The notes under the pieces were generated by a model. That model worked only from the letters and a program-made list of their open reading frames with translations. It was not told the DNA's origin and made no database searches. DNA of 64,000 nucleotides, taken from NCBI RefSeq assembly GCF_965641715.1, contig NZ_OZ282453.1; one strand, given 5' to 3'. The position numbers were made by a program, and so were the translations under genes. Of the stretch, positions 32,041-33,118 are shown in pieces (positions within the stretch are counted from its first letter, which is position 1; each line of letters begins with the position of its first letter). Origin of the DNA: Escherichia coli. Lineage in GTDB: Bacteria > Pseudomonadota > Gammaproteobacteria > Enterobacterales > Enterobacteriaceae.

Positions 32041-32550
32041 CCCCTCTCCGGAAGGACCCGTACAAATGAGAACACCTATAATTAACATTTAAGGATAAGA
32101 TGACGTGCATCATTGAAACGCCATTCAGCCATATACCTGTGGCATTCATTGTTGCACTCCGTAACCCTGCGACTAAGGTTGAAAGCATGGCCATCTTTTG
32201 CCACCGGCAAATCTTTACTGGATTTCCCCTGCCGGTTTTTTATTTTCGTCGATGCATAACATTGCATTTACATCAATACCATCTATTGTCATTAGTATGT
32301 TGCATCAATGCATGGGTGGTATTAGCGGTCTTCGCCAGCCGGTTCTGTGTAGCTGCTCCCTGTGACCGGTTTTTTATTTCTCACATTATCGCAGCCCCTC
32401 ACACTGAAGGGCTGCTGTAATGCTGATTAACGATACCCGAATGGTAAACATAGAATTCAGCATTCATTAATTAAAAATGCCGCATCCAGCAGAATTTAAT
32501 GCTTTCCAGACGCGGGAATACTCGTCATTTTTCAGCAAAATATTCTGCTC

Positions 32551-32784
32551 TTACAGGCGATCAGTTCTGCAGACACTGCCGGACACCGTCGACAATTTCA
32601 CAGACCTGAGAAGCTGTATCGAAAAGCTGACGCGCCTTATCGAAGCAGACACATCCACCAATAAAAAAGGCACCAGTATCGCTACCAGTGCCCATTTCGC
32701 CGCCGTTCGCGGCATTCTGTGTGTCCAGTGTTTTCTGCTCATGTCACCACCACCTGACCGCACTAACCAACTGTGCAATACCAT
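32551..32784 (-). CDS. Hypothetical small membrane protein (one predicted TM helix) between endolysin and cos
   Basis: ORF with likely start at MSRKHW...; hydrophobic stretch WALVAILVPFLLV; no family recognised. Confidence 0.3.
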   Translation of the reverse strand: MVLHSWLVRSGGGDMSRKHWTHRMPRTAAKWALVAILVPFLLVDVSASIRRVSFSIQLLRSVKLSTVSGSVCRTDRL

Positions 32785-33118
32785 ACAAGCACAAGCAGAA
32801 CGCTCCAGCCTTGATTAACCAGGCGGTAGCTACACTGATTTCACTTGTTAACGGAGATTTCAGTTCAAGGCCGTTTCTCATTGTCAACATCAGCAGTATT
32901 CTTTTATACTTCTCCATGAGGATTTTCTCCGCAGTTATTAAAATTCTTGTTATTCATACTTCTCCCTTGTCTTACTCAAGGTCAGAGAACTCAAAACCCC
33001 GGACTGTTCCAGCAGCCGGGGTTTTGCTATCGGATGCCATACCCTTTACTTTCGCTCATCGTAACCCCAGAAAAGAGCCAGCAAGAGTTGAGGGTATTCA
33101 GCACTTCAGTGTCAGTTT

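Follow-up and report, generated by a model that had tools for sequence, protein, structure and literature searches.

In the 64,000-nt stretch of Escherichia coli DNA analysed here (the window), the Rac site (ttcA/intR) is occupied by a lambdoid prophage. Its late genes lie on the minus strand, as do all features below unless stated otherwise, and they include a lysis cassette whose type is that of phiP27 rather than lambda. The first holin gene (33934..34323; Phage_holin_8, PF16931, Pfam E 4.8e-22; phrog_198, PHROG E 5e-39), annotated 'putative holin' in the identical region of EC416 (33934-34323), overlaps by 11 nt a second holin gene (33666..33944; Phage_holin_3_7, PF05449, Pfam E 2.4e-20; phrog_217, PHROG E 1.7e-35), and this is followed by a GH108 endolysin gene (33119..33673) in which Pfam recognises Glyco_hydro_108 and PG_binding_3. 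The endolysin starts with GTG at 33673; the identical EC416 copy in RefSeq starts with ATG at 33664. In many relatives of the cassette, the endolysin is an M15 peptidase instead of a GH108 enzyme. The left boundary of the interval is the putative cohesive-end site cosN (32020..32031), placed by homology to lambda-type phages, and the first head gene past cos is a Nu1-type small terminase gene (31296..31841; ORF list and homology). Positions 31800-32033 match lambda-type phages at 97% and are annotated as 'nu1' and 'cos site' in phage DE3; the exact position of cosN is estimated from the offset of the lambda Nu1 start.

A preliminary description of this locus had noted no recognisable Rz/Rz1 spanin genes after the endolysin, and our searches bear this out. 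tblastn with lambda Rz and Rz1 against the 64-kb window returned no match better than E = 0.18, and Pfam and NCBIfam gave no match to the two small products discussed below (the 57-aa protein and the lipoprotein). The all-frame lipobox search that the description had proposed was run with proline permitted in the h-region, as a stricter form would miss Rz1 and the phrog_7528 family; across the six frames of the window, it recovered only host lipoprotein genes and spurious matches. ORFs with an N-terminal transmembrane segment in the prophage were just Lom, a Hok-like peptide and antisense ORFs, none of them an i-spanin candidate. The suggestion that the spanins might be located elsewhere is therefore rejected within the window by tblastn, lipobox and N-terminal transmembrane scans alike. 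Likewise, neither an Rz of the lambda or GER2 type nor a further lipobox ORF recurring on the same strand was found in 80 related loci. In a P2-like phage, a related GH108 endolysin is followed by a DUF2570 protein, which we take to belong to a spanin family. Among Stx phages, Rz is present in 277 of 279, and a metallopeptidase endolysin combined with a classical holin occurs only in two Stx2e phages of cluster C (PMC8136144); we infer that these are the two phages without Rz.

What follows the endolysin are the short minus-strand ORFs of 57 and 63 aa that had been described. The 57-aa ORF (32744..32917; phrog_1115/phrog_4493, PHROG E 1.5e-16) is an intact gene for a small membrane protein, with GGAG 9 nt ahead of its ATG. 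The 63-aa ORF starts at an ATG at 32742, 1 nt beyond the 57-aa stop and inside a 77-aa ORF (32551..32784). Homology identifies it as the 5' half of a frameshifted gene for a 60-aa outer-membrane lipoprotein of the phiP27 type (pseudogene 32561..32742; phrog_7528, the SpaninDB 'o-spanin' of phiP27). Reading of the signal peptide begins at 32742, and the mature part continues in the -1 frame to a stop at 32561-32563. In tblastn, the lipoprotein accordingly splits across two frames, residues 1-29 and 26-60, which are 93% and 86% identical, respectively, to the intact ETEC1706 allele, itself 95% identical to that of phiP27. With the frame repaired, the window sequence matches phrog_7528 over positions 1-60 at E 1.3e-36.

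DNA alignment of four intact alleles (PapRG-04-4, ETEC1706, phiP27 and phiSTEC1575-Stx2k) with two deleted ones (EC416 and PEC41) places the lesion at 32655..32656, where GGG has become GG in the codon for the lipobox Gly(-1). The lipobox reads TTGGTGGGATGC in intact alleles and TTGGTGGATGT in the window, so that the frame shifts one codon ahead of Cys31 (...LVPFLLVDVSAS...) and the lipobox cysteine is lost. C48 and C57 are encoded solely in the shifted frame, and an alternative ATG in that frame (MGTGSDTGAFFIGGC) offers a 7-residue h-region and no basic n-region. As far as can be read from the alignment, the lipoprotein gene is inactivated here by this one-base deletion and the window holds a pseudogene. 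The transmembrane helix that had been assigned to the 63-aa ORF alone thus needs correcting on two counts: the hydrophobic segment is present, but by homology it is the signal peptide of the lipoprotein, and the 57-aa protein has a hydrophobic segment too.

A single missing base in a homopolymer run of three could be an error of sequencing or assembly that conceals an intact lipoprotein gene. We regard this as extremely unlikely, since the identical deletion and flanking substitutions occur in EC416 and PEC41, complete genomes sequenced independently in Japan and Korea, which excludes a one-off read error, and three-G runs are not error-prone on most platforms. The deletion allele is rare: it was found in 2 of 297 E. 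coli genomes carrying the region, the 76-nt stretch around it is identical in just 2 of 299 matching E. coli records, and an exact-pattern search of IMG/VR returned no matches. The prophages that carry it are integrated at different sites, at prfC in EC416 but at ttcA in the window; it has therefore persisted through at least one recombination or transfer.

That persistence at two sites would also fit a frameshift that does not inactivate the gene. A T TTT TTA run, read from the sequence in the zero frame at 32662..32668, a short way upstream of the deletion, is a potential -1 slippery heptamer in the correct register (codons TTT TTA), and we speculate that a slip on it (32668-32662) would restore a ...FLIGGC... 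lipobox and give the full-length 60-aa product with Cys31, C48 and C57 at a reduced, possibly tuned level. Of the substitutions that separate the window from PapRG-04-4 past the deletion, three are silent when read in the shifted frame, which speaks for this reading. However, the structure beginning 3 nt downstream of the heptamer folds no better than shuffled sequence (z -0.22) and its spacer is shorter than that of usual stimulators, intact alleles have the heptamer as well, and a slip on it there would do harm, and the deletion allele is rare. Unstimulated slippage would yield about a percent of product at most. We therefore consider functional slippage very unlikely and treat the window copy as a pseudogene in what follows.

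Across its family, the lipoprotein has the marks of a real gene. Across 49 unique alleles, variable sites are distributed 17/13/34 over the three codon positions and pN/pS is 0.18. The LVGC lipobox with C31 does not vary among E. coli, Salmonella, Citrobacter, Cronobacter and Yersinia, nor do C48 and C57, which could form disulfides within or between molecules; in intact relatives, LVGC is followed by V, A or T. The mature part has 30 residues, a net charge of -1 and no proline, is hydrophilic to amphipathic, and is predicted by AF2 to form a single helix (pLDDT 65). Two plus-strand antisense ORFs (113 and 106 aa) were rejected as genes, as they match no PHROG and the codon-position statistics favour the lipoprotein frame. 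Solved structures searched with a profile of the lipoprotein family gave no meaningful match; a C-x8-C likeness to eggshell CREMP modules was treated as chance, and an apparent resemblance of the mature N terminus (C-x-S-x-x-K-x-x-Q-L) to Braun's lipoprotein was dropped, as no search supported it. For the function of the phiP27-type lipoprotein, a literature search for experimental tests found only the catalogue entry discussed below. Annotation pipelines leave these small genes unannotated or label them 'hypothetical'.

Genomic setting points to the lysis cassette as the home of this gene. In the 80 IMG/VR loci, the lipoprotein lies downstream of Phage_holin_8, Phage_holin_3_7 and endolysin genes wherever the flank extends that far, and intact copies in Yersinia and Cronobacter prophages, as well as the pseudogene in the window, are placed in the same way. 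Its start lies 17 nt past the M15 stop in 38 of the 80 loci and overlaps the GH108 stop (ATGA) in Yersinia. The holin-holin-endolysin-lipoprotein unit adjoins three different terminase types in five genera. Of 5,426 complete E. coli genomes, at least 297 have the cassette, and Stx2e, Stx2k and LT-II converting phages carry it too. Judged by this gene order, the lipoprotein belongs to the lysis cassette and occupies the spanin slot.

The same slot borders cos, however, and the cos-proximal region is a known site of extra cargo genes (morons) such as bor. The lipoprotein might thus be cargo, for instance a superinfection-exclusion or receptor-masking protein like Cor or T5 Llp, in cassettes that have no spanins at all; Llp, too, is a lipoprotein of small size in which two cysteines are conserved. 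Between the lysis genes and cos there is indeed a hot-spot for cargo: 8 related loci have bor there on the opposite strand, SerU-LTIIb has LT-IIb toxin genes, and other loci have assorted small PHROG genes and a secreted protein of 267 aa. SerU-LTIIb has the same two holins and GH108 endolysin without the lipoprotein, which is therefore not indispensable to the cassette, and phage GER2 has, beside a complete and canonical S-R-Rz cassette, what is left of a decayed lipoprotein gene close to its terminase, indicating that the gene also travels with the cos-proximal region. Against a moron, the lipoprotein gene is co-oriented with the late operon, and no minus-strand promoter-like site was found upstream of it in the window; it is coupled to the endolysin by ATGA in Yersinia and follows it closely in the 38 loci with the 17-nt junction; and it travels with the holin-holin-endolysin unit across terminase types and genera, not with tail or receptor-binding genes. 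An exclusion role would, moreover, require expression from a repressed prophage. On balance, we find a cargo role rather unlikely and prefer a role in lysis.

The 57-aa ORF, by its conservation, is also a real gene and not noise. The window protein and the ETEC1706 subtype share 33 identical residues but identical codons at just 17 of these, so the family is conserved at the protein level. AF2 predicts helices at residues 3-16 and 22-55 (pLDDT ~83 over 31-50, 70 overall) and hydropathy peaks at residues 29-47, which together suggest an N-terminal amphipathic helix followed by a C-terminal membrane helix (~27-55 of 57). The confidence of this model, like that of the lipoprotein model, falls short of what a fold search requires. 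In the family alignment it is the membrane helix that is conserved and not the N-terminal segment, whose net charge is +2 to +4 in E. coli subtypes and -4 in Salmonella variants. A homologue search with the window protein returned 3 clusters and one with the ETEC1706 subtype 121, the low number for the former being a product of poor gene calling and of the word index. In this prophage, as in roughly half of its relatives, endolysin and lipoprotein are separated by an insertion that consists of a conserved hairpin and a gene for a ~57-60-aa membrane protein. The gene is thus optional in the cassette family, and phiP27 is without it.

The 57-aa protein and the lipoprotein could together form a miniature two-component spanin of separated architecture, in which the N-terminal 28 residues of the former would sit in the periplasm, bind the 30-residue lipoprotein and bridge the membranes; the window would then hold a broken pair. 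The genes are adjacent downstream of the endolysin, as in two-component spanins, and each is conserved. Variants in which the protein is fused into a two-TM form would put the segment ahead of the conserved helix in the periplasm, and the acidic Salmonella N termini fit N-out insertion. In phiP27, a combined periplasmic length of 62 residues has been accepted for a spanin (Kongari et al. 2018, PMC6139136). Several observations make this pairing improbable nonetheless. The lipoprotein occurs without a 57-aa gene in about half of the loci (the 38 of 80 with the 17-nt junction) and in Yersinia. Its mature part is unchanged alongside three different versions of the 57-aa-type protein or none, being identical with subtype A, subtype B or no partner, and so shows no co-variation. 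The segment that would have to bind it is the one that the 57-aa family does not conserve; in E. coli it is cationic and predicted to be an amphipathic helix, which argues for a location at the cytoplasmic face. Finally, ~58 residues are too short for a periplasm of ~20 nm unless fully extended. To our knowledge, a 30-residue mature peptide plus at most ~28 residues from a small membrane protein is far below any tested spanin in length.

A typical i-spanin/o-spanin pair, the observation that would have overturned the preliminary description, is thus not found in the interval: an i-spanin has an N-terminal TMD and a sizeable periplasmic domain, whereas the helix of the 57-aa protein is C-terminal, and its pairing with the lipoprotein is variable. 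Nor does the lipoprotein resemble a unimolecular spanin of the T1 gp11 type, as its mature part has no C-terminal TMD.

A comparison with spanin catalogues had also been proposed in that description. The phiP27 lipoprotein is listed as an o-spanin, by a computational call, in the shortest spanin pair of the survey by Kongari et al. 2018, and SpaninDB records a 'separated' two-component spanin with the o-spanin at 20706-20861 and the i-spanin at 20348-20542 (PMC6139136). The split gene of the window is homologous to this o-spanin and lies in the same slot past two holins and an endolysin, and the mature parts agree in having 30 residues, a predicted helix and two cysteines; the window differs in the frameshift at the lipobox and in having the C-terminally anchored 57-aa protein. 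The i-spanin, by contrast, is a TTG-start ORF of 64 aa that belongs to no PHROG and lies antisense to a 90-aa gene (phrog_36812), and its region was found in only 1 of the 80 related loci. The lipoprotein family therefore has no conserved i-spanin, and on these comparisons the published phiP27 i-spanin assignment does not hold up across relatives.

Similarity to the lambda system is one of position and design. Like Rz/Rz1, the lipoprotein gene occupies a late-operon slot directly past the endolysin and ahead of cos, and like Rz1 it specifies a 60-aa precursor with an outer-membrane sorting signal and periplasmic cysteine(s). Unlike lambda, the cassette has no sequence similarity to Rz or Rz1 (Pfam Phage_lysis and Rz1) and lacks a type II membrane protein whose periplasmic domain forms a coiled coil. 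Rz1 is embedded in the Rz gene and has 10 prolines, whereas the phiP27-type gene is not embedded and its mature part has none and is predicted to be helical.

Two other small lysis proteins invite comparison. The disruptin phiKT gp28 is a cationic peptide that replaces spanins (bioRxiv 10.1101/515445). Like it, the phiP27-type lipoprotein is a small amphipathic-helical protein encoded among lysis genes in a phage without a standard spanin, a comparison of character only. With its signal peptide, lipobox and net charge of -1, however, the lipoprotein is no free cationic peptide, and the 57-aa protein differs from a disruptin in carrying a membrane helix. Lcc6 (65 aa) of the Shewanella prophage LambdaSo is a transmembrane protein that contributes to lysis at the level of the holin (bioRxiv 10.1101/2024.01.23.576932). 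By description, the product of the 57-aa gene resembles it as a small lysis-cassette protein that crosses the membrane once and falls outside the holin, endolysin and spanin classes, although LambdaSo also has nested Rz/Rz1 and the 57-aa gene is optional in its cassette.

The reading that we favour, with a probability of about 0.7, is that the lysis cassette is of the phiP27 kind, that its o-spanin-like lipoprotein is an orphan, and that this prophage has only a dead copy of it. In intact relatives, the lipoprotein would be translated from the late transcript, with initiation coupled to the preceding gene through the 1-nt, 17-nt or ATGA-overlap junctions seen. After export and lipidation on Cys31, it would go to the outer membrane, since the residue behind the cysteine is V, A or T and not Asp, leaving in the periplasm a 30-residue amphipathic helical peptide with two invariant cysteines. 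This peptide may perform or assist the last step of lysis, disruption of the outer membrane, with a partner that would be no canonical i-spanin. In the window, the deletion would instead give a product of 63 residues, an uncleavable signal-anchor followed by a nonsense tail. No lipoprotein would be made, and the prophage would most likely be left without a dedicated outer-membrane disruption function. Its lysis might then resemble that of lambda Rz/Rz1 mutants, which depends on shear or on low divalent-cation conditions.

Of the possibilities raised in the preliminary description, unusually small spanins would thus apply in part to the phage family, with its 60-aa lipoprotein listed as an o-spanin, but not to this frameshifted copy; absence would describe this prophage in effect, as the deletion takes the lipidated cysteine out of frame and no i-spanin is identifiable. 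The 'missing spanins' of the window would be explained by a different, already catalogued type of cassette together with a pseudogene. The only spanin-like component of a common cassette would then be a tiny lipoprotein without a conserved inner-membrane partner, and how these phages open the outer membrane bears on the release of virions and toxin.

A stronger version, possible but doubtful, is that the lone 30-residue, disulfide-capable, amphipathic-helical lipoprotein breaches the outer membrane with no periplasm-spanning i-spanin, either directly or docked on a holin-family protein. If true, it would be a third outer-membrane disruption device beside spanins and disruptin, and the window copy would be its natural knockout.

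Apart from these genes, the interval contains conserved hairpins and an apparently non-coding block. The hairpin that had been reported at about 32995..33030, right after the endolysin stop, exists but is placed differently: its arms, 32992-33002 and 33016-33026 (CAAAACCCCGG-N13-CCGGGGTTTTG; 11 nt, 100% complementary, loop of 13 nt), lie 93 nt beyond the stop. It folds at -28.8 kcal/mol (z = -3.0), matched by 1 of 200 shuffles, and we estimate that a perfect 11-nt inverted repeat within 60 nt would arise by chance ~0.01 times per 1.1 kb. The hairpin is associated with the gene for the small membrane protein: of 42 related loci, 40 have the same stem 32-75 nt ahead of their homologous ORF, with the stem invariant and the loop variable, and the tested loci without a 57-aa homologue have a 17-nt junction with no space for it. 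It is terminator-like, with a strong stem but just four U next to it on either strand, and a terminator consensus scan recovered only an inner 5-pair version. Most likely, it is a module-boundary, weak-terminator or RNA-stability element read through by Q-modified polymerase. An Rfam search of 31700-35200 passed a tRNA alone; a 'sar' match over this hairpin was dismissed (21 bits against a gathering score of 43 bits), as was a 'NiCo' match over a second hairpin.

A terminator-like site of 11 pairs followed by T6 (32668..32693) was picked up by the scan within the signal-peptide coding part of the lipoprotein gene. Its hairpin is present in the MFE fold, and the stretch is nearly invariant in the alignment of intact and deletion alleles. 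Between the end of the lysis cassette and cos lies a highly conserved, apparently non-coding block (32100..32425, no strand assigned), for which a PHROG search with ORFs drawn across it found no family. It begins with a strong hairpin (32384-32422; z about -6 on both strands) and contains long invariant runs in four loci that differ upstream, one of which has a 2-nt indel. Parts of this block adjoin cos or terminase genes in phiSTEC1575-Stx2k, phi458, cdtI, phiP27 and Fels-1.

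The interval between the GH108 endolysin gene and the cos site (33118-32082, minus strand) forms the end of a lysis cassette of the phiP27 type. Within it are a conserved hairpin, an intact gene for an accessory membrane protein, a frameshifted gene for an o-spanin-like lipoprotein and, before cos, a conserved block that is probably non-coding. The window contains a lambdoid E. coli prophage with its late genes on the minus strand: a Phage_holin_8 holin-family gene comes first (34323-33934), followed by a Phage_holin_3_7 holin-family gene (33944-33666), the endolysin gene with GH108 and PG_binding_3 domains (33673-33119), the interval itself, the cos site (inferred near 32020-32031), Nu1 (31841-31296) and the large terminase gene (31321-29396). 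RefSeq annotates nothing across the whole 1.28-kb interval in the identical EC416 sequence.

The preliminary description had reported a hairpin and short minus-strand ORFs of 57 and 63 amino acids after the endolysin, and no recognisable genes for the spanin pair Rz/Rz1. The hairpin proved real, with 11-nt arms of perfect complementarity (32992-33002 and 33016-33026), a folding energy of -28.8 kcal/mol (z = -3.0) and 93 nt between it and the endolysin stop; both ORFs are likewise present on the minus strand (32917-32744, and from an ATG at 32742 inside ORF 32784-32551). No Rz- or Rz1-like gene was found by Pfam or NCBIfam, by tblastn of the window with lambda Rz and Rz1, in a six-frame lipobox scan run with a relaxed filter, or among ORFs scanned for a membrane segment at the N-terminus. 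The observation of missing spanins thus stood, and its interpretation did so in part: the slot is occupied by a frameshifted o-spanin-like lipoprotein gene.

Both ORFs match phage protein families without known function. At the same place, ETEC1706, PapRG-04-4, phiP27 and phiSTEC1575-Stx2k encode a 60-aa protein, MxRKHWTHRMPRTAAKWALVAILVPFLLVGC followed by VSLDKARQLFDTASQVCEIVDGVRQCMQN, with a basic n-region, a hydrophobic core, the lipobox LVGC and a 30-residue mature part. The window match to this lipoprotein (32742-32561) is split between two frames, residues 26-60 being shifted by -1 relative to residues 1-29, and DNA alignment located the lesion to one G absent from a GGG run in the lipobox glycine codon (32655-32656). 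With the G restored, the sequence matched phrog_7528 end to end (E 1.3e-36). The 63-aa ORF is therefore half of the gene, its 5' part, and the hydrophobic stretch previously taken for a TM helix is the lipoprotein signal peptide. The protein encoded in the window, ending ...LVPFLLVDVSASIRRVSF..., lacks a lipidation site. Ribosomes might bypass the lesion by a -1 slip on T TTT TTA (32668-32662), which lies in the zero frame just upstream of the deletion and would yield a 60-aa product (...VPFLIGGCVCFDKARQLF...) with a permissive lipobox; yet shuffled sequence folds as well as the hairpin 3 nt downstream and the heptamer also occurs in intact alleles, making such a rescue very improbable. The window copy is dead, a pseudogene in a catalogued family.

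The deletion is a rare, inherited lesion rather than a read error. EC416 (Japan) does not differ from the window anywhere in the 1.1-kb interval, and PEC41 (Korea) carries the identical allele across the 216-nt lipoprotein region. A 76-nt probe matched 299 records (297 genomes, 456 places), and the deletion allele was identical over the probe in EC416 and PEC41 only (2/299). The remaining matches listed span 77 nt, and the extra G is therefore present in those copies, which are mostly annotated as hypothetical protein. An exact-pattern search of IMG/VR returned no copy of the deletion allele.

Both small genes are real. In 49 unique intact alleles of the lipoprotein gene, variable sites fell 17/13/34 at codon positions 1/2/3, with a pN/pS of 0.18. 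Clustering at 90% identity gives approximately 160 clusters of the lipoprotein, from E. coli, Salmonella, Citrobacter, Cronobacter and Yersinia, with M1, the ALVAI..VP..LVGC core, C48 and C57 invariant. An 11-pair hairpin with a T6 tract (32668-32693, minus strand) lies within the signal-peptide coding part, where the DNA is almost invariant in all aligned alleles, more so than in the mature part; RNA- or DNA-level constraint may act there besides protein constraint. A 113-aa plus-strand ORF (32477-32818) runs antisense over the lipoprotein gene and is open whether or not the allele carries the deletion. With no PHROG family, and with codon-position statistics on the side of the lipoprotein frame, it is unlikely to be a gene.

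Over its late region (9732-34427), the prophage shares 98-99% identity with the EC416 prophage at the prfC locus, and PEC41 provides a second full-length match to segment 31800-34400, at 4.07 Mb. By contrast, the early region and integrase match prophages of the Rac site (ttcA/intR), and the flanks are also of Rac/ttcA type. The prophage is thus a recombinant mosaic, and the frameshifted allele has moved from one prophage backbone to another. Between the antiterminator region and the holins lie a tRNA gene (34785-34856, 65.6 bits; tRNA-Gly by annotation in the matching PEC41 region) and an AraC-family regulator gene (35274-36077), in the position where Stx phages carry toxin genes.

To place the lipoprotein in context, we surveyed 80 viral contigs carrying it. 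Wherever the flank was present, it was preceded by Phage_holin_8, Phage_holin_3_7 and an endolysin of the GH108 or M15 peptidase type. In 38 of the 80 loci, 17 nt separate the M15 stop from the lipoprotein ATG with nothing in between; in approximately 39, the endolysin and lipoprotein genes are separated by a member of the 57-aa family, in some cases together with an extra gene, either for a type II membrane protein of 44 aa (phrog_4906) or for a 93-aa protein. None of the 80 loci contained a lambda-type or GER2-type Rz or another recurrent same-strand lipoprotein gene; Bor was present on the opposite strand in eight. In Yersinia enterocolitica, where the GH108 stop and the lipoprotein start overlap as ATGA, the four-gene unit adjoins an HNH/Terminase_4 packaging module, and in Cronobacter a Terminase_6 module. 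In different genera and beside different packaging types, the four genes therefore stay together as a lysis unit.

The 57-aa ORF matches phrog_1115 (E 1.5e-16) and phrog_4493. The window and ETEC1706 subtypes share 33 identical residues, only 17 of them with identical codons. The conserved core is a C-terminal hydrophobic helix (AFAIKWVAVGIAVSPxLYGLAKLIIALKS and variants), whereas the N-terminal segment is variable in both sequence and net charge (+4 to -4) and in some relatives gives way to a second membrane helix. AF2 predicted, with moderate confidence, a short amphipathic helix (3-16) and a long helix (22-55). In 40 of the 42 loci with a family member, the hairpin AAAACCCCGG-N13-CCGGGGTTTT, invariant in its stem and variable in its loop, lies 32-75 nt upstream, and hairpin and gene form one insertion module. 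We considered this protein as the missing i-spanin and rejected it: its membrane helix is C-terminal, the conserved part is that helix and not the segment that would need to reach the lipoprotein, the gene is absent from half of the cassettes, and the mature lipoprotein is identical beside subtype A (PapRG-04-4), subtype B (ETEC1706) or no such gene (the related locus L014). Pairing of the two as a mini-spanin is kept as a minor alternative, because acidic Salmonella variants might adopt an N-out topology.

Lipoproteins are exported by Sec, processed by Lgt, LspA and Lnt, and sorted by Lol under the +2 Asp rule. Beyond the anatomy, conservation, synteny and frameshift documented here, intact copies would thus give a 30-residue peptide anchored in the inner leaflet of the outer membrane. 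The mature part is strongly amphipathic (computed hydrophobic moment 0.53, net charge -1, no proline) and predicted to be helical by AF2, as is the phiP27 o-spanin in a published supplementary table (Kongari et al. 2018, PMC6139136). Its position and the absence of Rz from lipoprotein-bearing cassettes suggest a role in the outer-membrane step of lysis, for which the two always-linked holin-family proteins would be the obvious candidate partners. With its copy dead, this prophage probably lyses like a lambda spanin mutant. Two phages argue against such a role. SerU-LTIIb (L090, 1065-3689) has the two holins and GH108 endolysin as in the window, then directly the LT-IIb enterotoxin genes, with no lipoprotein or spanin; toxin genes therefore fill the slot in which the outer-membrane lysis gene would lie. 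Stx phage GER2 has a canonical S-R-Rz cassette, and it retains a lipoprotein-gene remnant between an ais-like phosphatase gene and the terminase (L089, ~2988-3180), decayed by an in-frame stop and frameshifts, which fits redundancy or mere hitch-hiking with the cos-proximal region. In a Citrobacter P2-like phage with a related GH108 endolysin, the same slot holds a DUF2570 protein, presumably of a spanin family.

On its own, the window adds a pseudogene to a known family, a finding of modest interest, but it points to a common cassette for which a published i-spanin assignment looks wrong. The phiP27 spanin was classified as a 'separated' two-component system, a singleton in both families and the shortest pair surveyed (62 periplasmic residues), with the o-spanin at 20706-20861 and a 64-aa ORF at 20348-20542 as i-spanin (Kongari et al. 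2018, PMC6139136). By coordinates, this o-spanin is the 60-aa lipoprotein. The i-spanin ORF (L005 2891-3085) starts with TTG and belongs to no PHROG family, unlike the 90-aa gene to which it is antisense (phrog_36812). Its region was found in 1 of 80 related loci, and the call looks unsupported and false. Among Stx phages, Rz was reported in 277 of 279, and the combination of a metallopeptidase endolysin with a classical holin was confined to two Stx2e phages of cluster C, one of which, like phiP27, is a German isolate from a human (Pinto et al. 2021, PMC8136144). We infer that these are the two without Rz.

Across loci that differ in their upstream content, the block before cos (32100-32425, ~330 bp) is better conserved than the genes next to it. 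It is probably non-coding, because one locus tolerates a 2-nt indel. A very stable hairpin (32384-32422; z ~ -6 on both strands) opens it and also occurs in Fels-1 and, just before the HNH gene, in phiP27; larger parts are found in cdtI and phi458. The block contains two AAATAAAAAACCGG motifs; it might act as a packaging signal, specify a small RNA or mark an RNA 3' end. The presumed 12-nt cohesive end (32020-32031) reads GGGCGTCAGGCG, against GGGCGGCGACCT in lambda, and the flanking cosB/Nu1 side is 97% lambda-like.
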